Both the position numbers and the translations under genes were made by a program. Shown here in pieces: positions 37,686-64,000 of a stretch of DNA of 64,000 nt. How positions within the stretch are numbered: the stretch's first letter is position 1; every line of letters starts with the position of its first letter. Origin of the DNA: a virus. Under the pieces are notes generated by a model, which saw nothing but the letters and a program-made list of their open reading frames with translations, was not told where the DNA came from and did no database searches. The stretch covers positions 9,371 through 73,370 of the IMG/VR virus record IMGVR_UViG_3300027887_000463. One strand, given 5' to 3'.

Positions 37686-37718
37686 ACGTGTGTATTGGTT
37701 AGTGATTTTGACACCCTT

Positions 37719-37747
37719 AGTATACGAAAAAAATCTGACAAAATCAA
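37719..37747 (-). promoter_or_regulatory. sigma70-like promoter TTGATT-17 nt-TATACT (- strand)
   Basis: The reverse complement reads TTGATT (37747-37742), a 17-nt spacer, then TATACT (37724-37719). This is 33 nt upstream of the glycosyltransferase start. Confidence 0.45.
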
Positions 37748-37820
37748 GTTTTGGCCCGGAAAAAGTCGATTTGGCAACATTTAATTTCCGATTTTTTTAG
37801 GCCTATTTAGCGCCCTTAAG

Positions 37821-37853
37821 GTAAAAAAAATAAAAGGGGGATTTCTCCCCCTT
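37821..37853 (-). terminator. rho-independent terminator of the lipoprotein gene
   Basis: On the - strand, hairpin AAGGGGGA-GAAA-TCCCCCTT (plus-strand coordinates 37834-37853) is followed by TTTTATTTTTTTT. Confidence 0.7.
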
Positions 37854-37855
37854 AT

Positions 37856-38206
37856 CTATTGCCACGAAGTTGACACAGACACGACACACGTATCGATTGG
37901 CTGATCTCGGCGCCATTGGATCATATCCTCTTCACCTGGCCAAAGGTCCTCACCTTCGAGGGTAACGGTTGTATCTGCATAGCCAAGAAAGAAGGTTACC
38001 CGAACATTTGGGGCTACGGCATCTCCGACGTTCTTATATCGAACGTAGCAACCCCAGTTCAGACCATCCTGGAACACCTCACCCGAATTCCACGTCCCGT
38101 CGTCAGTGATCAGCAGAATGGGGCCGAGTTCATCGGAAGCTTCCGTACCGAGATCAGAACAACCGACCACGAACAGAGCGAGCACAAACAACACGACGTA
38201 TTTCAT
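37856..38206 (-). CDS. lipoprotein (moron-like)
   Basis: 116 aa. The signal peptide with lipobox is MKYVVLFVLALFVVG-C. The gene is visibly GC-richer than its neighbours and has its own promoter-like region and terminator. Confidence 0.7.
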   Translation of the reverse strand: MKYVVLFVLALFVVGCSDLGTEASDELGPILLITDDGTWNSGEVFQDGLNWGCYVRYKNVGDAVAPNVRVTFFLGYADTTVTLEGEDLWPGEEDMIQWRRDQPIDTCVVSVSTSWQ

Positions 38207-38219
38207 TGTTTCCCCTTTT

Positions 38220-38327
38220 CTAGTAGTTTCTGTATCTCCACCACCAACCGGTGAATTTGTCCCACTTATCGAACAGCCACCACCAGAGCCTTAACATACG
38301 AATTTGAATGAACCAAGGGAATTGCAT
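38220..38327 (-). CDS. candidate 35-aa Trp-rich peptide, below the track cutoff
   Basis: AGGAG-4 nt-ATG. Product MQFPWFIQIRMLRLWWWLFDKWDKFTGWWWRYRNY, with 9 Trp in 35 residues. It ends 13 nt upstream of the lipoprotein ATG. Confidence 0.3.
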   Translation of the reverse strand: MQFPWFIQIRMLRLWWWLFDKWDKFTGWWWRYRNY

Positions 38328-38390
38328 AGGTCTCCTATTGGTTGGTCATTATCTTATACCATATTGAGAGGGTAAAAAAATGCAAGACGA

Positions 38391-46265: not shown

Positions 46266-46294
46266 TTGACTTTTAATTGCTTTTTTCGTATCAT
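46266..46294 (+). promoter_or_regulatory. sigma70-like promoter TTGACT-17 nt-TATCAT of the RNAP gene
   Basis: TTGACT at 46266-46271, a 17-nt spacer, TATCAT at 46289-46294, then AAAAAGGTG and the ATG at 46314. The track ORF start (TTG at 46266) is the -35 element itself. Confidence 0.6.
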
Positions 46295-46313
46295 AGACAA
46301 AAAGGTGTACTAC

Positions 46314-49300
46314 ATGGTAAATAAGCTAGATCCAGGTCTCCAGTCTAAGAACATCCAAGAAGCTATAGCAAATGTGATTAAATCACAGTTTCCTATTCAG
46401 GGTCGATATCAAACCTTGGAGCTTGTTGGGCCCCTAACAATTCAAGATGATTTAGATGATCAAGATTTTCCTGCTCAGCGTGAAGCCAAGCTCAGCGGAA
46501 GATCCTGGCAAGTTCCTGTGTACGGAACTTTCCGCCTCACTGATAATAAAACTGGAAATGTTATTGATGAAGCTAAGGATATAAAGGTCGCCAATATTCC
46601 TAAGCTTACGGATCGTTTCTCCATGCTCATCGAAGGTAATGAATATACTACGATGAATCAATTTCGTCTCAAGCCAGGAATTTATACTCGTAAAAAAGCT
46701 AACGACGAAATGGAGTCTCAATTTAATCTTGCCGTAGGTTATAACTTCAAAATGATGATGGATCCGGCAGATGGTATCTTCTATTTATATATTGGAAACC
46801 AGAAGTTCCACCTGTATACCCTGCTTCGTGCTTTTGGCGCCTCAGAAAACGAGATGATTAAATCCTGGGGCAATGCTCTGTTTGATAAAAACAAAAATGC
46901 TGGCCTCAACGAAGAGGGAAAAGAAATACCTCTGATGTGGGAGAAGTTGAAGAGACAAAAACTTCCATACGAAGAAGCTCTCAATGCTTTAAAGGATTAT
47001 TTCGATAAGACCAGAATTGATGTTGATACCACAGAAATTACCCTTGGTCGTGGAGTAGATCGTGTTACTCCAGATGCATTACTTCTTACTTCATCTAAAC
47101 TCTTACGTGTTCTACGTGGAGACGAGCCAGAAGATGAGCGCGATAGCCTAGTCTTCAAAGATCTCTATACCGTCGATGATCTTGTTCAAAAACATATCGA
47201 GAAGCGTGCTCCGAATATTCAAAAGAATCTTTTAGCCAGAACAGACCATAAGCAATCAATAAGAGAAATCATCTCACCAGATACTTATACCAAAGATATT
47301 AAGTCTTTTTTCACGCAAGGTGACTTAAGTAACCCATCCCCACAGACTAACCCCGTCGAGATGTTGGGCGAGTGGCGGAAGACTACTATCACAGGCACGG
47401 GTGGTATTCAGAGTTCACATGCCATCACCTTCAAAACTCGTGACATTCACCCAACACACTTGGGTTTTGTTGATCCTCTTAATACTCCAGAGTCGGGTAA
47501 AGTAGGTGTAACCCTTCCTCTAGCTATGCATGTTGAGAAACATGGAAAAGATATTAAGACACGATTGGTTACTCCAGAAGGAAAAGATATATTTGCCACA
47601 CCAGTAGAATTCTACAAAATGAAGGTCGGATTTCCAGATCAGCATGTTGAGGGTAAAGCTAAAGGCACCATGATTAAGGCGATGTATCGTGGGCAATCTG
47701 TGGTTCTTCCTGCCAAAGATATTGATGCATATATTCTTGACCCAACAAGTATGTTTGCTTGGACAACTAACCTTGTTCCATTCTTAGGACATAACTCGGG
47801 TAACCGCGCCCTCGTGGCCGCTAAAATGGTAACTCAAAGTGTCCCATTGAAAGCTCCAGAAACTCCTCTGGTAAAAGTTGTTGGACAAACCGGAGAAACG
47901 CTTGATTCAGTATTAGGCACGTTCTTAAAACCTAAGGTTCCTAAAGGATTTGGAACAGCCACTGTAATGAAGATCGATGATGACTACATTCATATAAGAA
48001 ATGAAAAGGGCGATCGTCATAAAGTTGGTTTATACAAAGACTTCCCGCTAAATCAAGAATCTTTTATTAATTCACGAGTTCTAGTTGATATCGGGCAGAA
48101 AGTCAAGGAGGGTGAACCTCTAGCGGATACTAACTTTTCAGACAAGAGTGGAAACTTTGCTCCTGGTGTAAATGTCAATGTTGCATATATGCCTTGGCAT
48201 GGATATAACTACGAGGACGGTATTGTTGTTACAGATTCTCTTTCCAAACGTTTTACATCAACTGTAATGTTGAAAAAGAATCTGCAGGTAGGGAAGGATA
48301 GTATTCTAGACCTAAAGAAATTTGTTTCATATTATCCTAAAGAATTGACGGTTGCCAACATTGAGAAAATGGATGATACAGGAGTAATAAAGGAGGGCGT
48401 TCGTATTGAGCCCGGTGAAACACTTATTGCTCATCTAAGCAAAATGGATCTAACGGATACACAAAAGATCCTAAAAAATATGAATCGTGTATTATCCAAT
48501 CCTTATCGTAATCAATCTCTTACCTGGGATGGAGAAAATCCAGGTGTTGTAACCCACGTTAGAAAAGTAGGAAATACTTATCAAATTCATGTGAAGGAAG
48601 AGCAACCACTCAAGGTTGGGGATAAGCTAGCCGCTCGGTATGGGGATAAAGGTATTGTTACGAAGATCATTTCAGATTCCGAAGCACCCCATACCAAAGA
48701 TGGAAATCGTATAGATATGATGGTTAATATTCATGGTGTAGTAGGCCGTATGAATATGGGGCAGCTACTTGAAGCAGCTGCTGGTCGAATCGCTATGAAG
48801 ACAGGCAAGCCTTTCTTAGTAAAGAACTTTGCTGACCGAGATTATCTATCTGATATTATGGCTGAAATGAAGAAGTTAAAACTTGAACCTAATGAGACGC
48901 TTCTGGATGGAGCAACGGGTAAGCCATTTGAAAAACCAGTCTTCTGGGGCAATAAGCATTATCTAAAGCTGATGCATGTAGTTGATCATAAGTACAAAGC
49001 TCGTGGAATCCCCGGATCTTATGATGCAAATGAGCAACCCGTCCATGGCGAGGTCGGAGGACAATCAGTTGATCCTCTACAGATGTATTCGTATCTTGCG
49101 CACGGTGCACGAGAGAATCTATATGAATTTACCGCGGTGAAAGGTCAGAAGAATGACGAGTATTGGCGTGCGCTACAGCTCGGTCTTCCGCCTCCTCCAC
49201 CCCAAAGAAACTTTGTCTTTGATAAGTTCATTAATTATATCAAGGCAGCTGGGGTTAATGTTGAGAAGAATGGAACTCGGTTTAAACTATTCCCAGCCAC

Positions 49301-52300
49301 CTCAGATGATATGTTAAAATGGTCTGCTGGCGAGCTTACAGATCCTGGTCATATGTTACGTGGAAAAGATCTTAGTGAAATTAAGGGTGGTTTATACGAC
49401 CCGAAATTAACGGGAGGGCTGCGAGGTACTAACTGGACCCACTTCAAACTAGAAGAGCCGATCCCCAATCCATTATATGAAAATGCAGTTAAGTCAATCT
49501 TAGGGCTAAATACACCTGCATTTGAACGTATCATCAATGAAGATGATAAAGATTCAAAGATGAAAGGTAACCAGCGTATAGCCAAAATGCTTTCGGATAT
49601 TGATATAGATGAAGAATTAGCCAAAGCTAAGGACGCCCTAAAGACAGCTGGACCTACACAAGTTAACACTTTGAACAAAAGGATTCGTTTCCTATCAGTG
49701 TTGAAGGAGCGTAATTTACGTCCTGAAAAAGCATATATGATGGAATTGATACCAGTACTTCCTCCAATTTATAGGCCAGTTTATCCATTACCTTCCGGAG
49801 ATACACAGAATTCTCCAATTAATTATCACTATCGTGACGTAGCTGTGTTGAATCAGTCTATAAAAGATATAAAAGCACAAGGTCATTTGATAGATGAGTT
49901 GGAACAGAACAGAAAGAATAGATCTGACTTATACAAATCTGTAAAAGCTTTAATGGGATTAGCAGAGCCCATCACCTTTACTACTCGTCAATATGAAGGA
50001 CTTCTTGGAACTCTTGCCGGAGATTCTCCAAAGCAAGGATTCATTCAGAACAAGTCCTGGTCGAAACGTCAAGATTTATCGGCTCGGTCCACGATCACAG
50101 TGGAACCTTCGCTCGGTATCGATCAAGTTGGATTGCCTGACGTCATGTTGAAAGATCTCTTTAAACCGTTTGTTATGAGAGAAATTGTACGCCAAGGTTA
50201 CAAACCAACTGAAGCCTTAGAACAGATAAAAACCTGGACTCCTGTAGCGGAACAAGCTCTGAATAATGCTATTAAACAGCGGCCCGTTATGCTTAACCGG
50301 GCACCATCTCTTCATAAGCATTCAGTACAGGCATTCTGGCCACAGAGATTTGAAGGACAAAGTATTCGTGTAAGTCCATTGACAGCAAAAGGATTTAACT
50401 TTGACTTTGATGGCGACACCATGTCAGTACACGTTCCTGTGTCTGAAAAAGCTGTGGAAGAAGCTAAAGGCATGCTGCCAACAAAGAATCTCTACAAAGC
50501 CGGCGATCGTCAGCATATGATTAATATTGAACAGGATTACCAGCTTGGTCTTTATTATTTATCACAGCTCGGAGCAGATACTGGAAAACGATTTTCTTCT
50601 ATTAGCAAGGCAATAAAGGAAGTTAAGGATCGTAATACTACCTTTACTTTAGATGGTAAAAAGATGAGTATCGGACAATGGGAAATTAACGACCCACTTC
50701 CTGATGCTTTGAAAGATTATACGCGACTCATGGATTCAAAAGCCGTCAAAGGTTTAGTAGATACATTATTTATGAAATATCCCGGTTATCTTGGAACTGT
50801 TATTGATACCTGGAAGGAGCTCGGAAGAAACTACGCAGTTCAAAGAGGTAGTACCGTGTCCATTACAGATATGGTCGTTGATCGCAGTTACAGGGATAAG
50901 ATCTTAAAAGATTATGAAGCTAAAATTAAGCCTGGTATGGATAAATATGAAGTCTCAAAGATCTATGGTGATGCTAAAGCTGAGATGGAAGAGGCTCAAG
51001 AAAAGCTTCTAAAGGGGAAGAACAACTTTTATGATATGTTACAAGCTGGAAGTACTTCGAAGAAGGGTCAGGTTACACAGATCCTTTCCATGCCGGGCAT
51101 TATGATGGACGTTCACGGAGAGCCAATTCCACATCCTGTAAAGAAATCTTGGTCAGAAGGTCTTGATACATTTGATTATTGGAACCAGTCTTATGGTGCC
51201 CGTAAAGGTGTTGTGGATCGTTCCGTTAATACTCAAGATTCTGGAGCTTTAAATAAAGAACTTCTATTTACTACTAAGAGTTTATTAGTTATTGAAGAAG
51301 ATTGTGGAACTCCAGAGGGTATTATATTAGATACTGATTCCAAAGAAGTTATGGATCGATTTCTTTCAAGTGATGTTCCGGGCGTTGGTAAGAGAAATGA
51401 TCTTGTTACAAATGAGCGTATGTTAAAAGCGAAAACAAAGAAAATAGAAAAACTTCCAGTACGATCATCTCTCACCTGTGAAGCTGAGGGCGGAGTTTGT
51501 CAGAAATGTTATGGCCTTATGGCAAACGGACAACTTGCTCGTATAGGAGAAAATGTAGGAGTTATTGACTCTGAGGCTGTTACTGAACGTTCTACTCAAT
51601 TACAAATGCAGACTTTCCATACTGGGGGTGTTGCAGGCGGAGGGGCAGCAGTAACATTAGGGTTCCCTAGATTGGAAGAGCTCTTGTATGTTCCACAGAA
51701 GATTCGAGACGCAGCGGTTCTTTCGCGAGAAGATGGTATTGTTACTCAAATTACAGAGAATCCAGCAGGAGGAAAAAATCTCTTCATTGGTCGTAGTGAG
51801 TACTATATTCCAAGAGAGAGACGTCTAGACGTTTCCGTCGGCTCTCGAGTAAAACGTGGTGATCGTTTAACAGATGGTTCCATTAAGCCACAGGAATTGT
51901 CGGAATTAAAAGAGCATCTTACAGCCCAGCAATATATAGCAGATGAAATCAATAAGATTTATGAGAATAAATTTGCAAGGAAAACTTTTGAAACCGTTTT
52001 ACGTGGTGTAGCAAATAATGCCGAAATAACAAATATTCCTGAAGAAGTAGAAGCAAGTGCTAATTTTATGCGGGGCGATACAGTACCGATAACTCGTGTA
52101 AAGAAATTAAATAGAGAGCTACTTGCTGAAGGAAAACCACAGATAGAATATAAGCCATTCTTTAAATCTATCTCTGTACTCCCATTACATAGTGACGATT
52201 GGCTAAGTAGATTAACAACAAACAGATTAAAACAAACTATCCAAGAGGCAGCTTCTATGGGTATGGAGAGCGATGTTAAGGGCACAGACCCGATGTCTGC

Positions 52301-52361
52301 TTATCTATATGGACTTGATTTTGGAAAAGATGTTGATCCAACAAAGAAGAAATTCTATTAA
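46314..52361 (+). CDS. fused beta-beta' multisubunit-type DNA-dependent RNA polymerase (single chain)
   Basis: The beta blocks come first: RDIHPTHLGFVDPLNTPESGKVG, LVPFLGHNSGNRALVAAKM, MPWHGYNYEDGIVV, RYGDKGIVTKI...GRMNMGQLLE and KLMHVVDHKYKARG. The beta' blocks follow: VLPPIYRPV, KRQDLSARSTITV, NRAPSLHKHSVQAF, NFDFDGDTMSVHVP, YGARKGVVDRSVNTQDSGALNKEL and TQLQMQTFHTGG. Confidence 0.9.
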   Translation: MVNKLDPGLQSKNIQEAIANVIKSQFPIQGRYQTLELVGPLTIQDDLDDQDFPAQREAKLSGRSWQVPVYGTFRLTDNKTGNVIDEAKDIKVANIPKLTDRFSMLIEGNEYTTMNQFRLKPGIYTRKKANDEMESQFNLAVGYNFKMMMDPADGIFYLYIGNQKFHLYTLLRAFGASENEMIKSWGNALFDKNKNAGLNEEGKEIPLMWEKLKRQKLPYEEALNALKDYFDKTRIDVDTTEITLGRGVDRVTPDALLLTSSKLLRVLRGDEPEDERDSLVFKDLYTVDDLVQKHIEKRAPNIQKNLLARTDHKQSIREIISPDTYTKDIKSFFTQGDLSNPSPQTNPVEMLGEWRKTTITGTGGIQSSHAITFKTRDIHPTHLGFVDPLNTPESGKVGVTLPLAMHVEKHGKDIKTRLVTPEGKDIFATPVEFYKMKVGFPDQHVEGKAKGTMIKAMYRGQSVVLPAKDIDAYILDPTSMFAWTTNLVPFLGHNSGNRALVAAKMVTQSVPLKAPETPLVKVVGQTGETLDSVLGTFLKPKVPKGFGTATVMKIDDDYIHIRNEKGDRHKVGLYKDFPLNQESFINSRVLVDIGQKVKEGEPLADTNFSDKSGNFAPGVNVNVAYMPWHGYNYEDGIVVTDSLSKRFTSTVMLKKNLQVGKDSILDLKKFVSYYPKELTVANIEKMDDTGVIKEGVRIEPGETLIAHLSKMDLTDTQKILKNMNRVLSNPYRNQSLTWDGENPGVVTHVRKVGNTYQIHVKEEQPLKVGDKLAARYGDKGIVTKIISDSEAPHTKDGNRIDMMVNIHGVVGRMNMGQLLEAAAGRIAMKTGKPFLVKNFADRDYLSDIMAEMKKLKLEPNETLLDGATGKPFEKPVFWGNKHYLKLMHVVDHKYKARGIPGSYDANEQPVHGEVGGQSVDPLQMYSYLAHGARENLYEFTAVKGQKNDEYWRALQLGLPPPPPQRNFVFDKFINYIKAAGVNVEKNGTRFKLFPATSDDMLKWSAGELTDPGHMLRGKDLSEIKGGLYDPKLTGGLRGTNWTHFKLEEPIPNPLYENAVKSILGLNTPAFERIINEDDKDSKMKGNQRIAKMLSDIDIDEELAKAKDALKTAGPTQVNTLNKRIRFLSVLKERNLRPEKAYMMELIPVLPPIYRPVYPLPSGDTQNSPINYHYRDVAVLNQSIKDIKAQGHLIDELEQNRKNRSDLYKSVKALMGLAEPITFTTRQYEGLLGTLAGDSPKQGFIQNKSWSKRQDLSARSTITVEPSLGIDQVGLPDVMLKDLFKPFVMREIVRQGYKPTEALEQIKTWTPVAEQALNNAIKQRPVMLNRAPSLHKHSVQAFWPQRFEGQSIRVSPLTAKGFNFDFDGDTMSVHVPVSEKAVEEAKGMLPTKNLYKAGDRQHMINIEQDYQLGLYYLSQLGADTGKRFSSISKAIKEVKDRNTTFTLDGKKMSIGQWEINDPLPDALKDYTRLMDSKAVKGLVDTLFMKYPGYLGTVIDTWKELGRNYAVQRGSTVSITDMVVDRSYRDKILKDYEAKIKPGMDKYEVSKIYGDAKAEMEEAQEKLLKGKNNFYDMLQAGSTSKKGQVTQILSMPGIMMDVHGEPIPHPVKKSWSEGLDTFDYWNQSYGARKGVVDRSVNTQDSGALNKELLFTTKSLLVIEEDCGTPEGIILDTDSKEVMDRFLSSDVPGVGKRNDLVTNERMLKAKTKKIEKLPVRSSLTCEAEGGVCQKCYGLMANGQLARIGENVGVIDSEAVTERSTQLQMQTFHTGGVAGGGAAVTLGFPRLEELLYVPQKIRDAAVLSREDGIVTQITENPAGGKNLFIGRSEYYIPRERRLDVSVGSRVKRGDRLTDGSIKPQELSELKEHLTAQQYIADEINKIYENKFARKTFETVLRGVANNAEITNIPEEVEASANFMRGDTVPITRVKKLNRELLAEGKPQIEYKPFFKSISVLPLHSDDWLSRLTTNRLKQTIQEAASMGMESDVKGTDPMSAYLYGLDFGKDVDPTKKKFY

Positions 52362-53791: not shown

Positions 53792-55960
53792 TTATTTGTT
53801 CACAACGACAACCTTTCCGTCGACCAGTTGAACTTCAAATGACCTTGCATCTGGATTCTCCAGAAGAAGATCTGCCATCTTTGATTCAACTTCCTTTTCA
53901 ATCAATCGACGCATTGGTCGAGCACCATATTCCGTAGAGTAGCCCTTTTCCAAGAACCAGTCTTCGGCTTCTGGTGTAAAGCTCATCGTAAACCGTTCGT
54001 TGATATCGTTTACCATAAGCTTCATGATCTGTCTCATACTGTCCTTATCGAGACGATTAAAGGTAACAATCTCGTCAAGGCGGTTGAGAAACTCCGGCTT
54101 GAAAAAGCTCTTCAACGCCGCCTTAAGATTCTTCTTCATATCATCATCTGCTGATGTTTCAGAGAATCCAAGGTTACGTTTTCCGGCGCTCTCAACACCG
54201 ATGTTTGACGTGATAATGATAATAGTATTTTTGAAACTGACAACCCTCCCTTGAGAATCAGTCAGAATACCATCATCAAAAATCTGAAGAAGCACATTGA
54301 ATACATCCGGATGCGCTTTCTCTATCTCATCAAACAATACAACTGAATACGGCTTCTTACGAACTTTCTCTGTAAGCTTTCCACCGCTATCATCGTATCC
54401 GATGTATCCCGGAGGAGCTCCGATAAGCGAAGAGATGGTGAACCGATCAAAGAATTCACTCATATCCAAACGAATCATTGCCTGTTCCGAATCAAACAGA
54501 TATCTAGCCAACTGTCTGGCCATCTCTGTTTTTCCAACCCCAGTAGGTCCAATGAAGAGGAAGGTGCTTGGGCGTTTATCGCTTTTGACACCGGTGCGTT
54601 TCCGTTTAATTGAGTTGGATACAGCTTGAATAGCATCTGGCTGTCCAACCAATCTTCCAGAAAGATCGGTATCAATGTGCTTTAACTTTTCCCGTTCCGA
54701 CTTATTGAGATTGGTGATAGGAACACCGGTTGTCTTCGAAACTACTCCTCGAATGATATCATTGTCGACCTGGACTGTGCCAGCGAGTTTTGCGACTGCC
54801 GCAGCTTCATCCAAAACGTCAATGGCTTTATCAGGAAGGAAACGATCCTGAATATAGCGTTCGGTGAGTTCAATAATGGTTGGAATAGCTTCCTGTGGAA
54901 TTTCCACCCCGTGATAAAGTTCATAGACATATTTGATTTGGCCGAGAATCTGTGCGGTTTCCTCCAGGGTTGGTTGCTCAATCATCACCTTCTGAAATCT
55001 CCGCTCCAACGCTCCATCCTTCTCGACATGCTTGCGAAATTCATTGGCAGTAGTTGCGCCAATGCATTTAATGTATCCACGTGATAGTGCCGGCTTGATG
55101 ATGTTTGCAGCATCACCAGTTCCCTCAGTACCTCCCGTACCCATAAGGGAATGCATCTCATCGATAAACAGAATGATATCAGGATTCTTCATCAGTTCCT
55201 TGATAATCATCTGCATCCTCTGCTCGAATTGTCCCCTGTACTGCGTTCCCGCAATAATGGAGTTGATGTCAAGTGAAAGGATTCTTTTGTTGAGAAGCAT
55301 TTTGGGAACATTACCCGCAGCGACGCGCATTGCCAGACCTTCGACAATAGCGGTCTTTCCCACGCCTGGCTCACCGATCAACGCAGGGTTGTTCTTCTTC
55401 CTGCGTGCTAGGATCTCGATGACACGTGAGATTTCGGATTCGCGTCCGATGACCGGATCTAACTTATTCTCCTGAGCCAGAATCGTCAGATCCATCGAAA
55501 AAGCATTTAGTGCCGGAGTGTTTTGTGAACTTGTCCGATCACTTGATACCTTTTTCTTTGGTTCTCCGACTTCAGTGTAGCCAACTTCATTGAGCATCTT
55601 GGACGCTACACTGTCTGGTGTACGATAGAGACTGTGAACTAAAGCATCTGCTTCTATTGTTCCGGTTATCGATATGAACTTGGCGAAGTTCAGAATATAA
55701 CGCATCGAATTCGAAACTTTCGGAAGAGGGTTCGTTACTGCAATATCCCTCTGTATTACACGGAATCGATCCGACAAGAGTGTACGAAGTTTACCAATGT
55801 TTGCCCCATTCTTGTTTAAAAGCGTAAGGCCTTCGTTATCACCTTGCTCCACGATTGCAAAAAGTAAGACTTCACTGGAAATTGTATCTTGGTTAAGCTC
55901 CGTCGCTTTCTTTCGAGCTAATCCAAAGATTTCCTCTGTCTTTGTTGAATACTGATTCAT
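53792..55960 (-). CDS. ClpA/ClpC-type two-ring AAA+ unfoldase
   Basis: It has a Clp_N-like N-domain. NBD1 carries GEPGVGKTAIVEGLA and ILFIDEMHSLMG. NBD2 carries FIGPTGVGKTEMARQLA, VVLFDEIEKAHPDVFNVLLQIFDDG and GARPMRRLIE. There is no long ClpB-type middle domain. I set the start at the ATG at 55960 (AAAAGGAG-6 nt-ATG), not the track start at 56017. Confidence 0.85.
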   Translation of the reverse strand: MNQYSTKTEEIFGLARKKATELNQDTISSEVLLFAIVEQGDNEGLTLLNKNGANIGKLRTLLSDRFRVIQRDIAVTNPLPKVSNSMRYILNFAKFISITGTIEADALVHSLYRTPDSVASKMLNEVGYTEVGEPKKKVSSDRTSSQNTPALNAFSMDLTILAQENKLDPVIGRESEISRVIEILARRKKNNPALIGEPGVGKTAIVEGLAMRVAAGNVPKMLLNKRILSLDINSIIAGTQYRGQFEQRMQMIIKELMKNPDIILFIDEMHSLMGTGGTEGTGDAANIIKPALSRGYIKCIGATTANEFRKHVEKDGALERRFQKVMIEQPTLEETAQILGQIKYVYELYHGVEIPQEAIPTIIELTERYIQDRFLPDKAIDVLDEAAAVAKLAGTVQVDNDIIRGVVSKTTGVPITNLNKSEREKLKHIDTDLSGRLVGQPDAIQAVSNSIKRKRTGVKSDKRPSTFLFIGPTGVGKTEMARQLARYLFDSEQAMIRLDMSEFFDRFTISSLIGAPPGYIGYDDSGGKLTEKVRKKPYSVVLFDEIEKAHPDVFNVLLQIFDDGILTDSQGRVVSFKNTIIIITSNIGVESAGKRNLGFSETSADDDMKKNLKAALKSFFKPEFLNRLDEIVTFNRLDKDSMRQIMKLMVNDINERFTMSFTPEAEDWFLEKGYSTEYGARPMRRLIEKEVESKMADLLLENPDARSFEVQLVDGKVVVVNK

Positions 55961-56361
55961 AGTACTCCTTTTGTGAATAAAATTTGGAAGGCTGCGATCC
56001 GCAATCCTTGATAACATACCGTCCGATTATTAGGCCATCGGGGCCTATTATCATTCCTACTATTCCATACTGCTACCTGATCACGAAACGTAACCCTGGA
56101 ATGGGAAATGCATTCCGCGATTGGGATGACAACCTTCCCTTGAAAGGGATAACCTGGCCAGGACTAGAGCTTCTCCACAGCCCCTTTGCTAGGGTAGGGC
56201 CGTGTGTCTGAAAAGTACAGATACCCCTCCCCAGGTCCTTTGCCTGGGCGTTAGGGCTCATCAAAAGTCGAAGCGACTTTCTATAGCTTGATAGCTTCTT
56301 CAAACCAAATTGGCCGAAGAATCCTCATGCGCCCACCTCTACTCGTAGCCAAGCTCCCTAA
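55961..56361 (-). other. long GC-enriched, hairpin-rich intergenic leader (candidate structured RNA)
   Basis: About 400 nt without a credible ORF in an otherwise gap-free genome. Several 6-bp-stem hairpins are present (for example TAGGCC-ATCGG-GGCCTA at 56031-56047, GGAATG..CATTCC ~56098-56116 and CCCAGG..CCTGGG ~56230-56248). Confidence 0.3.
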
Positions 56362-56529
56362 TTACTTCTTATCCTCAAGCTTCTTCAGAATCTTCATCCG
56401 CTCTTTTGTTGCGCCCGAGTCTTTTCCCAGTTTTCCGTCCAGACGATTCAGTCGGTCTGAAAGGGTCAACTTCTCGTACAATTCCTGGCGGACCTTCGCT
56501 TCTTCCTGCTTCTGTTTCCGGCTTTTCAT
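56362..56529 (-). CDS. candidate 55-aa coiled-coil protein in an alternative frame of the phosphatase tail
   Basis: GAGGT-8 nt-ATG at 56529. Product MKSRKQKQEEAKVRQELYEKLTLSDRLNRLDGKLGKDSGATKERMKILKKLEDKK. It looks more protein-like than the overlapping phosphatase tail (…PETEAGRSEGPPGIVREVDPFRPTESSGRK…). Confidence 0.35.
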   Translation of the reverse strand: MKSRKQKQEEAKVRQELYEKLTLSDRLNRLDGKLGKDSGATKERMKILKKLEDKK

Positions 56530-57226
56530 ATGATATTACCTCGACTTGATTTCCGTCTAGTTTAACAACTTGTTTTGTGAATTGAAGGCAGTCGATATCC
56601 CAATTGGAACCTTTTTGTTTTATCTTTGTGACCGGTGTATGGCCAAAGATCTGGGTTAATCCTTCCACGGGATTGAAGTCAACAGCAAAGTCAGACCAAA
56701 ATATACCTGCGTTTTGATCCACTCCCCCACGACTCATTCCAATGTTATATACTAACCCATCATCTACAGATCTCCAGGATTCTTGTAAAAAGAATTCAAT
56801 CAAATCAATGAAATCTTCTCTCTCATAGAGATCGGGGGTAGTTTCGAATGCCTCTCGAAGAAGCTGTGAATTAAGCCCTGCGTGTGTGATGAGTACCTTA
56901 TTTTCCTTATCCAGAATAAAAGGTTTCATCAGTTTCCACATACGGCTTTTTAATGCTATGATTTTTGCGTCGAAACTTGATGCATATCCCGAACACCGCA
57001 TACGCCTCATGAGATACGATAGCTCATGATTACCAAAAACACATTCAGTGGTTCCTCGTTCAATATCATTTAGAACCAACTCTAGAAGCTTGAACTGTTC
57101 TGTTCGTGAAAAGTAAAAGGAATCGAGCAGATCTCCAGTTAAAATCAGCTTCTCTTTTGTTGAACTCTTTACTTCGTGATAGAAGTTGATCTCACCATGG
57201 AGATCTCCGATTACGATTGCTTTCAT
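56375..57226 (-). CDS. calcineurin-like metallophosphoesterase (lambda Ser/Thr phosphatase type)
   Basis: Motifs IGDLHGE, TGDLLDS, FGNHE, ITHAGL and IFGHTP occur in the canonical order. The last ~48 codons may not be genuine (see the ORF at 56362). Confidence 0.75.
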   Translation of the reverse strand: MKAIVIGDLHGEINFYHEVKSSTKEKLILTGDLLDSFYFSRTEQFKLLELVLNDIERGTTECVFGNHELSYLMRRMRCSGYASSFDAKIIALKSRMWKLMKPFILDKENKVLITHAGLNSQLLREAFETTPDLYEREDFIDLIEFFLQESWRSVDDGLVYNIGMSRGGVDQNAGIFWSDFAVDFNPVEGLTQIFGHTPVTKIKQKGSNWDIDCLQFTKQVVKLDGNQVEVISYEKPETEAGRSEGPPGIVREVDPFRPTESSGRKTGKRLGRNKRADEDSEEA

Positions 57227-57711
57227 CGATTAAAATAATCCTCGTTGTGCCACTCTGGTGGTTTTCTGTTTGTCCATCTTTTGTCTATGTGCTTTTTTCC
57301 ATAAAAATAATACTTTCTATAAGCCCAAATGGTGTTGCCAAATTTATATTCATCTGGCATACATTTTGGAGGAGAGGAAAATCCTATAATCGGTATATCT
57401 TTTGGAAGGCGCTGAAGAAGCCACATAGGCTCGCTTGTTTTATGATGCTTACCATATCTGTGGTTGTATTCGGATAATAGCCACTGCCCATACTCCAGCA
57501 ACCACTGGTAATTTTGGCCAGAAGTTCGCGCCCATATGGCACACGGATGATTTTTATGTGTCGGTTGGTACATCCCCCGTTTCCACGAACCCAGTTCAGA
57601 ATGTGCAGTGCTGAGCAGCTGTGCAGTCTCTAAAATCATCTTTACTACATGCTTATCACACAGCATTGCTGCACATGTTTTAGGATCTCGTGCAAGGTAG
57701 AAAATGTTCAT
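57223..57711 (-). CDS. conserved hypothetical protein (MNIFYL..DP...AA....DKHVVKM.LE.AQ.L family)
   Basis: 162-aa ORF. I recall the N-terminal pattern as recurrent in phage and giant-virus proteins, but I cannot assign a function. Confidence 0.5.
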   Translation of the reverse strand: MNIFYLARDPKTCAAMLCDKHVVKMILETAQLLSTAHSELGSWKRGMYQPTHKNHPCAIWARTSGQNYQWLLEYGQWLLSEYNHRYGKHHKTSEPMWLLQRLPKDIPIIGFSSPPKCMPDEYKFGNTIWAYRKYYFYGKKHIDKRWTNRKPPEWHNEDYFNR

Positions 57712-57718
57712 CTAATTC

Positions 57719-58036
57719 TTATACCTTAAATGGGCCATCTCCATTGTTGGCATCTCCCTCAAACATCTCTCCAGAGAACTCTTCTCCGGGAGCGGCGCCC
57801 TGCATTTCCGGACTTACTTCGGCAGCCTTAAGCTCGGCTTCGATGAATTTCTGCATATCTCCGCCCAGTTTTCCTTCGGGATCCTTTTCTGTTAGAATCG
57901 AGCAGAAAGCATCGACAATTTCTGCAGGAATAATTGGAGGACATAGAACCATTGGAGAGGCTTCTAAGGCAGCTTCGGGGTTACCCCACGCAACCATACG
58001 AACATCCCCATCTGTTACAACAAAATATTTATCCAT
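57719..58036 (-). CDS. hypothetical acidic protein
   Basis: 105-aa ORF, rich in D/E. It lies directly downstream of the terminator hairpin at 58045. Confidence 0.5.
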   Translation of the reverse strand: MDKYFVVTDGDVRMVAWGNPEAALEASPMVLCPPIIPAEIVDAFCSILTEKDPEGKLGGDMQKFIEAELKAAEVSPEMQGAAPGEEFSGEMFEGDANNGDGPFKV

Positions 58037-58044
58037 GTAAATAA

Positions 58045-58066
58045 AAGGGCACGGTTAGGTGCCCTT
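58045..58066 (-). terminator. rho-independent terminator overlapping the Pnkp-like stop codon
   Basis: AAGGGCAC-GGTTAG-GTGCCCTT. On the - strand it is followed by TTTTATTTAC. The TAA stop (58055-58057) sits in the loop. Confidence 0.6.
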
Positions 58067-60223
58067 CTCCTTGTAATACATATTTCTCAATGTGATGATA
58101 TCTCGTGATAGCTCTTCTTCAGTTCTGGTTTTGAGCCAGGCATAGAAGTAGTTGGCTTCGGGCGTAACCAATCCCGAGAGATTCACCTGTCGTCTTGCAC
58201 GAACAGCATCCTTCACTACACGCATATGTTTCCAGAAGTTGTAGTAAGGGAGCTTAAGCTTCATCATAAAGCCATTGGAATCCTCAAAGACAAATCCCTC
58301 GATATCCGAGGTAGTTGCCGTTTCACATTCCTTATAGAATTGAAGAAGCTCTTCCTTCGAGTTCAGAGTCTTATACAATTGCTTCGAGCGATGTGGCATA
58401 TTCAGTGAATGGGCAAATGCCAGCATCTCCTGATATGGCAACTTCTCGTAGTCAAGTGTTCTCCGCACTGCATCCAGAAGAACTAATCCCTGTCTGTCGG
58501 GATATGCAATGATATGAGGATCGGTATCTTGATCAACTACTTCGAAGACAAGAGTGACGTTGTGTCCCTTGAGAATTGCTTTGAGATAATCCGGATCTAC
58601 GTTTGTGGTTAATGCCCACACACGCTTGAAGATGTCCGGATAGATTCCCTCAACAGAACTCTTGGAAAGGAAGAGAACCTGATCGGAAGCAGTATCATAA
58701 CCGACCATACCCAGGAATCCATTATACTTCTCGTACACATGGACAGGATATTGAAGGTTAACCGTTTCAATCTTAGTCTCATCTCTTTCGTTCACATTGA
58801 AAAACTTATTATATGAACGAGCCACAATTTCATTTGTCACCGTATTGACGAACAGTCCTCTGGCTTTTACTGTCATTCCATCCCAAATCTTCTTGTAGAA
58901 CGCACCACGGTTGAAGTTAAACGAGGAGATATCTCCGAACTTGCGCTCATTGATGTGTCTGCTCTTCCTTAAATCCTCCACGAACGAGGAAGGACCGAGA
59001 GTGGTTTCCACTTTTATATTTTTTGGACGAAATACAGTATTCGGAATCTCCCATGTCTTGATCTCCAAAGAATCACGATAGAGAGTAACAGCCCGAAGAT
59101 TTCCTCCGAACTCAATGTTACCCTGCAGATTATAATACTTTGGGTTGATCTTTATAGGCGATTCCGTAACGTTTCTATGGCCAGATATCTGGATGGCATC
59201 CGGCGGAGAATTCTTCTCCCACGATTCAGCAACCTCCAGCATATCTTCATAGCGTCCCACACCTTTGATAAATTGTTCGGTAGCAATTGTGATGAGGTCT
59301 TCAGGGAGCTTAGAGATGCCTCCGTGGGTTACCAGAACGAGCTGATTTCCCAAACGGAAATATGCAACCTGAGCAAACTTCCTACACAACTGCCGTACGG
59401 ATCCCTTATCCAAAGCTGCGGACTCGAGTTCTCTTTTGGTTTGGAAAAGGAATTCATTGGAACGAATCTTTTCCTCTTCCTGGTTGGCCCAGTATCTCAA
59501 CCACCGCTCGTGATTCCCCTCCAGAAGAAGTATATTAGGCTTTTCATAATTCTCGATAAGCCAACGTACCACCTCGGTATTCTGAATCCCACGATCGATA
59601 AAATCACCAACAAAGATGTAATAGTGATTTTCGTGATAGCCAACTGCATCGAACCACACTTTCAGCGGTTCATAACATCCGTGAATATCTCCGATAATGT
59701 GCACCTGTTCATATTCAAATGCAAGCGGTGCATAATCAAAGACGCCCATATAGTCAGCCGGCTTGACAACCTGGACATAACCAGGAACCGGTTGACTCTT
59801 TAGTCGAGCTTCGATATTATCGAGCACAAATTCCGGAACCCACTTATATTCCGGACGGGTCTTATTCTGAAGTTTGCATTGTTCCAGAGGAACATCGGAG
59901 AAGTCGATACAATAGATACGGTATCGATACTCTCCTGCCAACTTCTTATACTTGGCAAAATCGCTGGCCTTGGAGTGAGTAGCATCAATGAACACCAGTT
60001 CTCCGCGTTCCATGCGAGTTTCCAACATTTCGAATAGAAGTCCCCAAACCTTTCGGTCATTCTCCGGGCTAATCGCGTACACTCCCTTAGGAGTAAGTAC
60101 CGGCGCCTGGAGTTGGAGACGAATGTCATCAGCGCACAATGTGTAAGGGCGCAGGCCTTCCTGTTCGAGCCAGGTAGACTTTCCGCATCCGACATTACCG
60201 CGGAGAAGATAGAGGTGTCTCAT
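58055..60223 (-). CDS. polynucleotide kinase-phosphatase with C-terminal ligase-like domain (Pnkp-like RNA repair enzyme)
   Basis: The N-terminal P-loop is RGNVGCGKST. The central metallophosphatase has IGDIHGC, VGDFIDRG, EGNHE, VTHGGI and SGHRN. The C-terminal part carries the nucleotidyltransferase motif I-like YEKYNGFLG. This order matches bacterial Pnkp. Confidence 0.65.
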   Translation of the reverse strand: MRHLYLLRGNVGCGKSTWLEQEGLRPYTLCADDIRLQLQAPVLTPKGVYAISPENDRKVWGLLFEMLETRMERGELVFIDATHSKASDFAKYKKLAGEYRYRIYCIDFSDVPLEQCKLQNKTRPEYKWVPEFVLDNIEARLKSQPVPGYVQVVKPADYMGVFDYAPLAFEYEQVHIIGDIHGCYEPLKVWFDAVGYHENHYYIFVGDFIDRGIQNTEVVRWLIENYEKPNILLLEGNHERWLRYWANQEEEKIRSNEFLFQTKRELESAALDKGSVRQLCRKFAQVAYFRLGNQLVLVTHGGISKLPEDLITIATEQFIKGVGRYEDMLEVAESWEKNSPPDAIQISGHRNVTESPIKINPKYYNLQGNIEFGGNLRAVTLYRDSLEIKTWEIPNTVFRPKNIKVETTLGPSSFVEDLRKSRHINERKFGDISSFNFNRGAFYKKIWDGMTVKARGLFVNTVTNEIVARSYNKFFNVNERDETKIETVNLQYPVHVYEKYNGFLGMVGYDTASDQVLFLSKSSVEGIYPDIFKRVWALTTNVDPDYLKAILKGHNVTLVFEVVDQDTDPHIIAYPDRQGLVLLDAVRRTLDYEKLPYQEMLAFAHSLNMPHRSKQLYKTLNSKEELLQFYKECETATTSDIEGFVFEDSNGFMMKLKLPYYNFWKHMRVVKDAVRARRQVNLSGLVTPEANYFYAWLKTRTEEELSRDIITLRNMYYKEKGT

Positions 60224-60690
60224 TATGACTTCCTTAACATAGTTAAGATTTGATTTCCTTCTCGTTTTGGAGTATCCATTGCGAAATGGGTTAGTTCTGC
60301 TTTTATTTTTTCGAGTAATTCAAATCCCTGTTCGGGACGAGTTATTTCTCGACCATGAAAGCGAACTATCAAACGAATAGGATGTCCCTTTTCGAGTAGT
60401 TCATTGATATGCCGAGCTTTTGTTTGAAGATCATGGTCGGCAATATTAATATTGAATCGAAACTCTTTTAGATCTGGCGCAGGTTTCGTCTTATGCGCTT
60501 TTTTCTGTTGATACTGAAACTTCTCAAAGTCTTGAATCTTGCAGACACCGCGCCCAACTTCTACAAGATCCAAACTCCTTGTATGTGCTAATTTTATAGC
60601 CTCGGTCGTAGCTAGAGTTCCGAGATTATTTCCGTTCTCGTCAATAACAAGAACGGGAGTGTCCGTGATCTGATTATTTACACGGTTCAA
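60223..60690 (-). CDS. infC: translation initiation factor IF-3 homolog
   Basis: 155 aa and collinear with bacterial IF3. The N-domain reads VLVIDENGNNLGTLATTEAIKLAHTRSLDLVEV...VCKIQDFEKFQYQQKK. After a basic linker the C-domain reads KEFRFNINIADHDLQTKARHINELLEKGHPIRLIVRFHGRE. Confidence 0.8.
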   Translation of the reverse strand: MNRVNNQITDTPVLVIDENGNNLGTLATTEAIKLAHTRSLDLVEVGRGVCKIQDFEKFQYQQKKAHKTKPAPDLKEFRFNINIADHDLQTKARHINELLEKGHPIRLIVRFHGREITRPEQGFELLEKIKAELTHFAMDTPKREGNQILTMLRKS

Positions 60691-61051
60691 GTTCGATCTT
60701 CTCCAATGATTGGATATTTGTGTATGCGTAAAAGGTACCTAGTTTGGTACCCGTATCTTTGAAACATAGTTTAATCTTTACACTATGCGCAGATTCATAG
60801 AACGGCATTGTATACCCCAGTAACTCTAGCTGAGTTCCCGCAGGTAGAAGCAGTTGTCCGTTTCTAGGTATTCCGTATTGACCTCTGTGTACATTGGGAT
60901 CTGGAGTGAACATATTTCCAGCAAAAGTACTCACTCGCTTCTGTGCGTAACTTGTGGAGAGTTCTATTGAGACCAACTGGTCTTTTATTACAATAAACTC
61001 TCGCTTACCCTCAAAAAAATTGAATCTCATTTTAAAGACCAATCTAACCAT
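60674..61051 (-). CDS. hypothetical protein
   Basis: 125-aa ORF that overlaps both neighbours. Confidence 0.5.
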   Translation of the reverse strand: MVRLVFKMRFNFFEGKREFIVIKDQLVSIELSTSYAQKRVSTFAGNMFTPDPNVHRGQYGIPRNGQLLLPAGTQLELLGYTMPFYESAHSVKIKLCFKDTGTKLGTFYAYTNIQSLEKIELEPCK

Positions 61052-62025
61052 TTCGGATTACGTACATACCAGTTGACTGTTTTGCTGAGACATTCTTCAA
61101 ATTCCATTGGAATCTTCCAGCCCATATTTTCCATCTTGGTTCCGTCCAGAGCATAGCGTAAGTCATGTCCTGGCCTCGATGAATGAAAGTCAACTAGTTC
61201 GTATTTTAGTTCTTTCCCAAGGATGACGGCAATATCATGTGCCATATCCAAGTTACTAACCTCTTTTTCTCCTACAATATTAAACTTATCACCATTGTCT
61301 GTATGAGAGTTCAGAAGAAAGTGAATAGCTGATGCAACATTTCTTGCATGGATATAAAATCGTGAGCCAGATTTTGTTCGTTCTGGATTAGAGTGTATTT
61401 CAATAGTTCGTCCAGCAAGAATATCAATAATACATTTGGGTATGAATTTTTCTGGGTGTTGTCGTTCTCCAAAAACATTCATTGTGTGGGTGATGATGAT
61501 GGGAAGTTTGTAGGTATTTTCATACGCTATACAAAGCTCTTCTCCGCCCGCTTTAGTAGCTGCATAAGGATTTTTTGCATTGTAGCGATCCCATTCCTTA
61601 AAAGCTATACCTTCGGGTGCCGGTCCAAAAACCTCATCTGTAGAAAAGTAAATCATTTTCTCTAGATGCCGTAGATTTCGAGCAAACTCTAAAATCTCTA
61701 AGGTCCCCACTACGTTTGAATAAACAAAGCGTCGTGGTTCGGTTATTGAGTTATCTACGTGTGTCTCTGCACCCAGATGTAGAATGTAATTTACATCGCC
61801 GATTTCATTGAGTAGCCCCTCATTTATGGGCTTCGTAAAATCCGCAGTAAAGGTAGTTACACGCTTATCATCATACACGTTAATATCGCGTAACCGATTG
61901 AATCCATGTGAAGCATATGTTAATTTATCGAATACGACTATGCTCCAGTCAGTATTTTTCAGAAAATGTTCTACGATGTGGTGCCCGATGAAACCAGCAC
62001 CACCCGTAATTAAGATTATTGGCAT
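61027..62025 (-). CDS. NAD-dependent sugar-nucleotide dehydratase/epimerase (dTDP-glucose 4,6-dehydratase-like SDR)
   Basis: ILITGGAGFIGHH (Rossmann GxxGxxG), DKLTYASH, HLGAETHVDNSI, FSTDEVFG and YAATKAGGE (the YxxxK catalytic motif) occur in RmlB-like order. Confidence 0.7.
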   Translation of the reverse strand: MPIILITGGAGFIGHHIVEHFLKNTDWSIVVFDKLTYASHGFNRLRDINVYDDKRVTTFTADFTKPINEGLLNEIGDVNYILHLGAETHVDNSITEPRRFVYSNVVGTLEILEFARNLRHLEKMIYFSTDEVFGPAPEGIAFKEWDRYNAKNPYAATKAGGEELCIAYENTYKLPIIITHTMNVFGERQHPEKFIPKCIIDILAGRTIEIHSNPERTKSGSRFYIHARNVASAIHFLLNSHTDNGDKFNIVGEKEVSNLDMAHDIAVILGKELKYELVDFHSSRPGHDLRYALDGTKMENMGWKIPMEFEECLSKTVNWYVRNPKWLDWSLK

Positions 62026-62369
62026 AGATTAAGAAGAAGGCCCTGTTCGTCTTCATCCGCATTGCGGCATATAGCGCCTTCAAAAACCCTCATGTTAAAA
62101 GTTTTGGGACGAACATTTAATTCCGGTCTCGGCCCATTGTAATCGAATCGTTCAAGGAGAGCTGCGAGATTTATACGAATCTGCATACGCACTGCCAGAC
62201 GTTTCGTAGCACGAGCTTCTCCCTCTAAATATATACGGTATTTACTCAACGTCTTGTGGCGTTGCATTTCACTCATAAGCCTCACTTCATCCGCAATATG
62301 GTTAAAATAAGGCTGTAAAATTTCATTGACCACCTTGACTGATGGTTCAATGGCAGGCAACTTTGTCAT
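62016..62369 (-). CDS. hypothetical protein
   Basis: 117-aa ORF that overlaps the downstream SDR gene by 10 nt. Confidence 0.5.
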   Translation of the reverse strand: MTKLPAIEPSVKVVNEILQPYFNHIADEVRLMSEMQRHKTLSKYRIYLEGEARATKRLAVRMQIRINLAALLERFDYNGPRPELNVRPKTFNMRVFEGAICRNADEDEQGLLLNLCQ

Positions 62370-62407
62370 AGAAATTCTCCTTTGTTACTTTCTTATACCA
62401 TGAAAGT

Positions 62408-62437
62408 AAAAAAAATGAGGGGGAGTTTATCTCCCCC
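62408..62437 (-). terminator. rho-independent terminator of the SPFH gene
   Basis: On the - strand, hairpin GGGGGAG-ATAAA-CTCCCCC (plus-strand coordinates 62419-62437) is followed by TCATTTTTTTT. Confidence 0.65.
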
Positions 62438-62443
62438 ACATTA

Positions 62444-63637
62444 CTACTTCTTTGGAATTGAAAGGTCGAGTGCCAAATCCTTGGCGGTCTTGACTGAGAG
62501 CATATCAATCAAAGCCGTTGCGGAATTATAGCTACCCTTACCAGCACCGCTTCCCTCAAAAATCACATCAGGAACCCACTTCTGTTTGCCAATGTTTTCG
62601 GCAAAAGCAGTCATGACCGCCTGATAGGTTTCCAACTTCTGGGTCAAGGCACCATCAGCAATAATGATCTTACGCTTGTATTCAGCATCAGCTTCAGCTT
62701 CGAGAATTCTCTTCTGCTTATACTGACCGGCTGTTTTGGTTTCAAGCGTAGCAACTTCCAGCTTCTGCTGGGCTTCTGTTACCATCTTGGCCTTGATTAC
62801 TTCCTGTTCCCATTTGGCTTTTGCGGCTTCTGCACGACCATTCTGTTCCGCGGTAATCGCTTGCTGTTCAGCTTCGCGAGCCTTTGCGGAGGCAGTTTGA
62901 ATCTGCATAATTGCCTGTTGCTGAGCCTGGATCTGCTTCTCAACGTTTTCGTCGTAGCCAACGTTATTGATCGAAAGGTTGAAAGTCTTTACTCCAAAAA
63001 CTGCAAGAGGAGATTCATCCTGCCGTTCAAAGGTGCCATCCTTACCTTTCAATACGTCAACAACCGTGAGAGTACGTGGAGAACCAGATAGAGGATCCTT
63101 ATCTTGAACCTGATATGAACGGGTCTTATAAACCCCATTCTCGATCTGGTCTTCGATAAAACGGATTAACTCATTCCGGCGTTCAGCATAAGACTCTTTT
63201 GACGACATAAGAGGGCCAGTCATATAGACTGATTTCTCTACGATCGTTCGTACGAGTTGCTGCTCAATGGCCTGCTGGCTTCCATACTTGGTATGAAGCA
63301 TAACCAAATGCTGTTCATCCACAGGCATTTCCCACGCAATTGATCCAGAGACACTGCCATGACCACCATCATTGAATCGAACTGAGATGGCCTGATTCAT
63401 TTCTGTTCCCTGATCATCTTTTTCTGAGAACCAGAATTGGGATCGCTTTTGATACTTGGTGACTTTGCCGAAACCCTGCCACTTGAAATTTCCAGGAGTC
63501 ATGTGCCAGGTGAGATCTCCCGAAAGAGACTGAACCACCATGATCTCGTCGGCGTCGTTACTTTCGAAAATGTTGAAACTTGCAAAGATCAGAACGATCG
63601 CAAGAATGGCAACGGCTCCGAGGCCGAAGATCTTGCG
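62444..63637 (-). CDS. SPFH/band-7 (prohibitin-like) membrane protein; 5' end unresolved or truncated at the junction
   Basis: An N-terminal TM helix ([23 protein letters not shown]) is followed by an SPFH-like core and a long A/E/Q/K coiled coil. No start codon lies upstream of the TM helix before the sequence turns into GC-rich foreign DNA. The track's 518-aa ORF is a read-through artefact. Confidence 0.6.
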
Positions 63638-63670
63638 ACCCGCGTCGAGCTCGGCGGGCGGCGGTTCCTG

Positions 63671-64000
63671 CGCCGTTCCGGCCGCGGCGCGTTCGTCACA
63701 CGCCTTGCCGACGGCCGGCCGCTCGGCGTGATCAACGCGATGGGCCGGGTCTTCATGCCGCCGGTCGACAATCCGTTCGAGGCGGTCGCCGCCGCCGTCG
63801 ATCGCCTGTCGCGCGAATCCCGCGTCATCGTCGTCGACATGCACGCGGAAGCCACGGCCGAGAAGATCGCGATGGGCTGGCACCTCGATGGCCGCGCGGC
63901 CGCGCTGGTCGGCACGCACACCCACGTGCAGACCGCCGACGCCCGCATCCTTCCAGGCGGCACGGCGTACATCACCGATGTCGGCATGACCGGGCCGCAC
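63671..64000 (+). CDS. internal fragment of a YmdB-like metallophosphoesterase (2',3'-cyclic-nucleotide phosphodiesterase family), bacterial, truncated at both ends
   Basis: The + frame reads ...[18 protein letters not shown]...[57 protein letters not shown]. This matches the YmdB signature DFHAEATSEK...[24 protein letters not shown]. The DNA is very GC-rich, unlike the rest of the window. Confidence 0.7.

Follow-up and report, generated by a model that had tools for sequence, protein, structure and literature searches.

An apparent phage–bacterium junction near the end of a large-phage contig is very probably an inter-genome chimera with a 39-nt filler

Metagenome assemblers that work on de Bruijn graphs produce chimeric contigs from shared k-mers or from sequencing errors, and this failure is documented (PMC7299287). 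At the attL and attR borders that provirus-boundary tools call, viral genes adjoin a bacterial housekeeping-type gene and the GC content changes. At Mu-type ends, phage DNA stands beside apparently random host sequence and interrupts a host gene. Mu-type virion DNA carries random host sequence at its ends, and each such end is a fixed phage terminus.

Here we analyze a junction that bears some likeness to all of these. It lies near the right-hand end of a 64,000-nt stretch of viral metagenomic DNA (referred to as the window; positions 9,371 to 73,370 of IMG/VR record IMGVR_UViG_3300027887_000463). Like an inter-genome chimeric contig, it joins unrelated genomes, truncates genes on both sides and shows an abrupt step in composition with locally extreme GC, and it differs from a two-part chimera of that kind by an extra 39-nt segment that makes it three-piece. 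It resembles an attL/attR border in the adjacency of viral genes to a housekeeping-type gene and in the change of GC, but the break lies inside a phage gene, the phage continues elsewhere, and the bacterial gene is an internal fragment. The interruption of a bacterial gene next to phage DNA is reminiscent of a Mu-type end; however, there is no fixed terminus at position 63638, and the phage is of an unrelated large type. Judged from sequence comparison, the junction is very probably an artefact, an inter-genome chimera formed at or near a contig end, and is unlikely to have existed in any natural molecule.

The step in composition is sharp. Large-phage DNA of ~42% GC occupies positions 1 to 63638 without any other compositional break, and the window begins, at its left end, with ordinary phage DNA. 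Sliding-window GC rises from ~0.44 to ~0.72 near 63,640. At a resolution of 200 nt, GC is 0.445-0.47 up to 63599 and 0.595 at 63500-63699, after which the values are 0.725, 0.71 and 0.705 up to position 64000. At 30 nt, the increase is from 0.43 at 63580 to 0.80 at 63640, and GC stays at 80-83% across 63640-63700. The remaining 63.4 kb has a 200-nt GC of 0.417 ± 0.044 with a maximum of 0.56, and the GC-rich tail, ~7 SD out, is the sole such segment in the window. Codon usage shows the same divide, with a GC3 of 0.48 in the phage gene at the junction and 0.91 in the bacterial gene fragment. There is no compositional amelioration between the two sides, neither in overall GC (0.42 versus 0.72) nor in GC3. 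An earlier note on this DNA had placed a step from AT-rich phage to GC-rich bacterial sequence at ~63,640 and had asked for a sliding-window plot and for a separate comparison of each side; the plot bears out the step and shows only this one, at the GC-rich tail, and the comparisons assign the left side to phage contigs and the right side to a contig from Acidobacteriota, as described below.

On the left side, the phage does not end at the junction. Positions 56332-63638 are 99.98-100% identical to independent contigs, L001-L004 and L087. L001 and L004 are Logan assemblies of SRR407549 and SRR407548, respectively; L087 is the JGI contig WSSedA2C3DRAFT_1004069, found by a targeted scan for the native sequence that spans the breakpoint. 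Sample identities were taken from the record names only, and we take 'WSSed' in the name of L087 to mean wetland sediment. Leftwards from 63638, L001 and L004 are 100% identical to the window, and to the right of this position they have nothing in common with it. L087 is 100% identical to the window over 63020-63638 and then continues into 1,561 nt of phage DNA that is identical to L001. Beyond 63638, the three contigs carry at least 1,536 nt of 42%-GC phage DNA, which encodes 15 further codons of the interrupted gene, a ribosome-binding site and at least four small genes; in L001 this continuation begins GGATTTACAACCGATCC. A further JGI contig of 30.5 kb (sample 3300075153), represented by its gene table only, has an intact Band_7 gene preceded by ten genes over 5.4 kb. 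Three DNA assemblies and one gene table thus read on past the junction for 1.5-5.4 kb or more.

The native continuation was not found anywhere else in the window. A megablast search of positions 58000-63640 against 50,697 GenBank phage records returned no match, nor did the exact phage-side 51-mer (63540-63590) in IMG/VR. The neighboring gene, which encodes a 117-aa protein on the minus strand (62016-62369), has an identical product encoded on several public contigs.

The interrupted phage gene encodes an SPFH/Band-7 protein. In the window it runs on the minus strand from 62444 to 63638 and retains codons 16-412 and the stop codon; the minus-strand ORF matches the Pfam Band_7/SPFH family (PF01145) with E=1.8e-10 and 41.6 bits (cut-off 23.6). 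The intact gene in L001, L004 and L087 encodes 412 aa and is preceded by the ribosome-binding site AAAGGAAG. Its native N-terminus reads MSPNFPSSTGSVVNP, followed by the breakpoint and then by the sequence retained in the window. The window copy lacks the first 44 nt (14 codons and 2 bases), and with them the start codon and the ribosome-binding site. Within the phage part, no canonical in-frame start is left before Met48, a residue beyond the transmembrane helix. The native protein comprises a short N-terminal tail, a transmembrane helix, the SPFH domain and a coiled-coil-like C-terminal part.

Relatives of this protein retain the architecture that the window copy has lost. The closest database relative of the intact protein, encoded by the 462-kb uncultured phage LR756500.1, aligns over the full length with 52% identity; this phage has nothing in common with the region around the break except the SPFH gene. 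Relatives in IMG/VR show 40-55% identity and are found on viral contigs of up to 424 kb, and crAss001-like phages have annotated SPFH genes whose products are 36% identical to the native protein. Of the 17 viral relatives examined, every one has both the N-terminal tail and the transmembrane helix, and none shows a GC step upstream of the SPFH gene. The absence of 15 codons and of the start signals from the window copy is due to the chimeric join and does not reflect biology.

On the right side, positions 63678 to 64000 encode, on the plus strand, an internal fragment of ymdB, a TIGR00282-type metallophosphoesterase gene, from residue ~96 of ~275 onward, cut by the end of the window. The plus strand matches the Pfam YmdB family (PF13277) with E=4e-46 and 157.8 bits (cut-off 27), although the match is confined to profile positions 93-201 of 253. 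The closest match at the protein level, P0001, shows 100% identity across the part it covers and sits on L005, a 1,209-bp JGI contig of 72% GC. Window positions 63678-64000 correspond to bases 18-340 of L005 with 322 of 323 positions identical (99.7%), and the one mismatch, at 63832, is synonymous. The piece is a gene fragment of a true member of the YmdB family, represented by P0001 on L005. The closest genomes to this fragment are all Acidobacteriota MAGs; the best match has 82% protein identity and is followed by many Vicinamibacterales at 60-65%. In the closest full-length homologue, ~95 of the ~275 residues precede the point at which the fragment starts.

L005 also shows what should stand upstream of the fragment. 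The expected ..NMSPSAP is encoded by its bases 1-17, which differ from the window at this place but agree with P0003 and L006, homologues that read ..LRPLNM[SA]..APGRG. L005 begins at the position equivalent to 63661 of the window. Both parents thus exist separately, and each is continuous across its breakpoint: the phage through 63638 in L001, L004 and L087, and the bacterium through 63678 in L005.

The ORF that crosses the junction is a product of the join. This 518-aa ORF (62444 to 64000, minus strand) fuses SPFH residues 16-412 to an antisense translation of the filler and of ymdB, the SPFH frame extending past the join into GC-rich DNA, read antisense, that is poor in stop codons. The exact 518-aa product is not on record among 153 billion gene positions. 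Several claims that the earlier note made from the letters alone agree with these results. It had described a minus-strand SPFH protein that lacks a start codon, and the intact gene in other contigs, together with Met48 as the first start kept, substantiates this. Its plus-strand internal part of a YmdB-like gene corresponds to the partial PF13277 profile match, and its estimate that roughly the first third is missing fits the ~95 of ~275 residues absent relative to the closest full-length homologue. Frame analysis likewise confirms its view of the 518-aa ORF as a chimeric read-through on the antisense strand of ymdB.

The two parents do not meet directly. Base-by-base comparison with L001, L004 and L087 places the first breakpoint at 63638/63639, between the last base in common with the native phage and the first foreign base. 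The second lies at 63677/63678, where identity to the Acidobacteriota contig L005 starts. Between them stands an orphan filler of 39 nt, CCCGCGTCGAGCTCGGCGGGCGGCGGTTCCTGCGCCGTT (63639 to 63677; ~80% GC), that matches neither the phage nor the ymdB parent. With 39 nt foreign to both parents and two breakpoints, the junction is three-piece and not the blunt one that the earlier note had described. The 28-nt core of the filler (63644-63671) has no match in JGI metagenome contigs, and to our knowledge the filler does not resemble common Illumina adapter sequences.

Two candidate origins of the filler were considered and rejected. As a diverged or frameshifted upstream part of ymdB, it reached a best local score of 28 against the 5' halves of relatives, compared with a mean of 25 and a maximum of 30 for shuffled sequence. 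A 12-mer within it, CGCCGAGCTCGA, is found again in many loci of Acidobacteriota at a distance of ~2 kb downstream of ymdB, where a small xseB-like gene uses it to encode an AELE motif. The flanking sequences match only at chance level, at 30-42 of 76 positions, and we rejected the xseB-like gene as well.

The gene content of the window points to a large phage of virulent type, neither Mu-like nor typically temperate. The structural genes include those for a baseplate J/wedge protein and a portal protein, and a repetitive ORF of 3,241 aa is also present. The window further encodes a fused beta/beta' RNA polymerase of 2,031 aa and a protein with a match to sigma-70 region 3, along with ClpB-like and MoxR/vWA proteins, a reverse transcriptase, an IF3 homologue, glycosyltransferases, a sugar dehydratase and a Pnkp-like kinase-phosphatase-RNA ligase. 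Pfam domains of integrases, recombinases or transposases were absent from 26 of the 28 ORFs of at least 200 aa (the set scanned, which leaves aside the 3,241-aa ORF and a 208-aa overlapping ORF) and from the four small genes that L001 carries past the break. The same 26 ORFs contain no DDE transposase or MuB-like domain.

We also searched for repeats and RNA genes. No att-like, target-duplication or terminal repeats were found at the junction: the interval 63300-64000 holds only short, imperfect GC-rich repeats at chance level, and the opposite phage end lies outside the window. There are no repeats of the TR/VR type near the reverse transcriptase or among the direct repeats of the whole window. 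Searches with Rfam at gathering thresholds and with ARAGORN returned nothing in the window.

Taken together, the junction shows what is expected of an inter-genome chimeric contig: parents that are separate and continuous, a join that is not reproduced elsewhere, a step in composition, and genes cut on both sides. For the join not being reproduced, the filler core was looked up in JGI metagenome contigs and the 518-aa product among gene records; the absence of the chimera from databases is by itself weak evidence. The misassembly or concatenation that the earlier note had ranked first is supported by the phage reading through in L001, L004 and L087 and by the bacterial piece standing separately in L005.

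As to its origin, we infer that the join arose where the phage contig ended: the assembler would have left the true phage path there and followed low-coverage, GC-rich community sequence. Chance sharing of short k-mers, or a chimeric read, may have led it onto this wrong path. The join would then have been made in silico, or possibly during library preparation. Behavior of this kind is suggested by three local features. The last phage 31-mer before the break has a GC content of 0.645, at the 99th percentile for this phage; sequence of this kind is the likeliest to have a short k-mer in common with GC-rich DNA from the community. This 31-mer is followed by the stretch of 80-83% GC, and short-read coverage is typically poor in stretches of such composition. 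Furthermore, L005 starts within ~20 nt of both breakpoints, which suggests that assemblies tend to break there. The 39-nt orphan is also a less typical outcome of integration than of an assembly-graph path or a chimeric read.

Other explanations can be weighed against the same observations. Two records may simply have been concatenated end to end without a spacer, in one bin or file or by scaffolding without Ns, which would make the junction a post-assembly artefact. Both sides do resemble contig ends, the phage stopping mid-gene and L005 beginning within ~20 nt, and the window contains a single such junction, very near its end. A record boundary, however, explains at most one of two breakpoints that lie 39 nt apart, and the orphan segment would still require an erroneous contig tip, so that an assembly- or read-level error is needed anyway; we consider plain concatenation unlikely. 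Within the artefact reading, roughly two thirds of the weight goes to a chimera at the assembler or read level, with the remainder for concatenation plus an erroneous tip on a contig. A real event is conceivable in the form of a very recent and rare illegitimate recombination between the 42%-GC phage and a 72%-GC Acidobacteriota chromosome with 39 nt of filler DNA, giving either a phage variant that carries acidobacterial DNA or a phage fragment inside an acidobacterial chromosome. Nature does produce non-homologous joins that contain a few tens of filler bases, near-perfect parents (100% for the phage and 99.7% for the bacterium) are also expected of a very recent event, and the window could be a rare real variant beside a wild-type population represented by the contigs that continue natively. 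Against this stand the destruction of both genes, the 30-point GC gap without amelioration, the native sequence in every other assembly of this phage, the absence of the filler core from JGI metagenome contigs and of the 518-aa product from the record, and the gene content of a large virulent-type phage. Temperate phages are reported to differ less from their hosts in GC than virulent phages do, and mostly stay near the GC of the host (PMC13015707), and the GC of the present pair is unlike that temperate pattern; a 30-point gap without amelioration makes lysogeny hard to reconcile. We hold such a recombinant to be very improbable. If true, it would tie a large uncultured phage physically to a host among the Acidobacteriota in spite of the GC mismatch of 30 points, and would imply physical contact, for example infection of that host.

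Readings in which the junction marks a regular phage end fare worse still. For a temperate phage integrated within the Acidobacteriota ymdB, with the junction as a true prophage-host attachment site, only the bare adjacency of phage and bacterial DNA can be cited. The phage reads on past this point in three DNA assemblies and one gene table, the break falls within a phage gene that is conserved, 44 nt into its coding sequence, neither an integrase nor a recombinase domain occurs in the scanned ORFs of at least 200 aa, no att-like repeat was found within 63300-64000, and the two sides differ in GC (42% versus 72%) and are separated by the 39-nt orphan. That a prophage was unlikely had already been argued from composition, and the native continuation of the phage past 63638 in other contigs, together with the 30-point gap, strengthens the argument to the point where we give this reading almost no credence. 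A Mu-like transposable phage, inserted at random in ymdB or packaged with variable host DNA at a Mu-type end, was the fallback offered by the earlier note. It would account for random host sequence at the end of virion DNA and for the truncation of a host gene, but position 63638, the supposed end, falls within the coding sequence of SPFH and is passed without interruption in other copies, no DDE transposase or MuB-like domain was detected in the scanned ORFs, and the junction has neither terminal inverted repeats nor target duplications. The large-phage gene content, with its own RNA polymerase, and the occurrence of the closest SPFH relative in a 462-kb phage also speak against it, and this fallback does not hold up; we regard its chance of being correct as negligible.

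The favored reading, an inter-genome chimera, has practical consequences. The join is, with high probability, neither a biological feature nor a prophage border. Taken at face value, it would yield a false provirus call and a false host link between a large phage and Acidobacteriota, as well as a spurious 518-aa fusion protein and an SPFH gene mis-annotated as truncated at its N-terminus. The last 362 bases of the window (63639-64000) should be trimmed and the 518-aa ORF discarded, and the truncated SPFH copy should give way to the native 412-aa protein of L001 or L087. The main value of the finding lies in sequence hygiene. A small point of method is that contig ends that fall in locally GC-extreme stretches should be compared with independent assemblies before they are read as junctions between a phage and its host.

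The assembly break within ymdB may be a recurrent one. L005, a JGI contig that represents an independent assembly of the acidobacterial ymdB gene, begins at the equivalent of window position 63661, within a stretch of 80-83% GC. This start lies about 20 nt or less from both breakpoints of the chimeric junction, which suggests a recurrent assembly break point near this position.

On the phage side of the junction, the length of the SPFH gene differs between assemblies. The same gene is listed as 427 aa in the gene table of the JGI 3300075153 contig versus 412 aa in L001 and L004, the two Logan assemblies of this phage, indicating that the gene calls chose different start codons. The intact gene occupies positions 1493-2731 of L001, and the start of the 412-aa version is preceded by a good RBS.

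The phage portion of the window encodes several further proteins. A 3,241-aa ORF (17566-27291, + strand) contains numerous diverged internal repeats, 45-152 nt long and sharing 60-78% identity, and presumably encodes a repetitive fibre or surface protein. A 294-aa reverse transcriptase is encoded at 40479-41363 on the - strand (RVT_1, E=4e-23). Since no template/variable-type direct repeats were detected in 37500-42700 or among the window-wide repeats, a diversity-generating retroelement is not evident.

With respect to transcription, a single 2,031-aa ORF (46266-52361, + strand) carries the Rpb2 domains of RNA polymerase beta fused to the Rpb1 domains of beta', and a separate 237-aa protein (6469-7182, + strand) matches sigma-70 region 3. 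Two adjoining genes span 42663-45380 on the - strand. One encodes a bpMoxR-type AAA ATPase (E=1e-46), the other a vWA-domain protein, and this phage-borne pair resembles components of MoxR-vWA ternary systems. Additionally, the phage encodes a 741-aa, double-AAA ClpB/Hsp104-like chaperone (53792-56017, - strand).

Searches of the whole window (1-64000) returned no tRNA genes in its 64 kb and no Rfam families at the gathering threshold. At the nucleotide level, region 58000-63640 gave zero matches to 50,697 GenBank phage records. This region carries, on the - strand, a complete 155-aa homologue of translation initiation factor IF3 (60223-60690) in which IF3_N and IF3_C domains are both present, and four independent contigs hold an identical copy of this gene. 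Encoded at 58055-60223 on the same strand is a 722-aa trifunctional protein in which an AAA_33 kinase and a calcineurin-like phosphoesterase are joined to a T4-type RNA ligase 1 domain. The architecture is that of a Pnkp/Rnl-like RNA-repair system, with all of its domains in one fused phage polypeptide.
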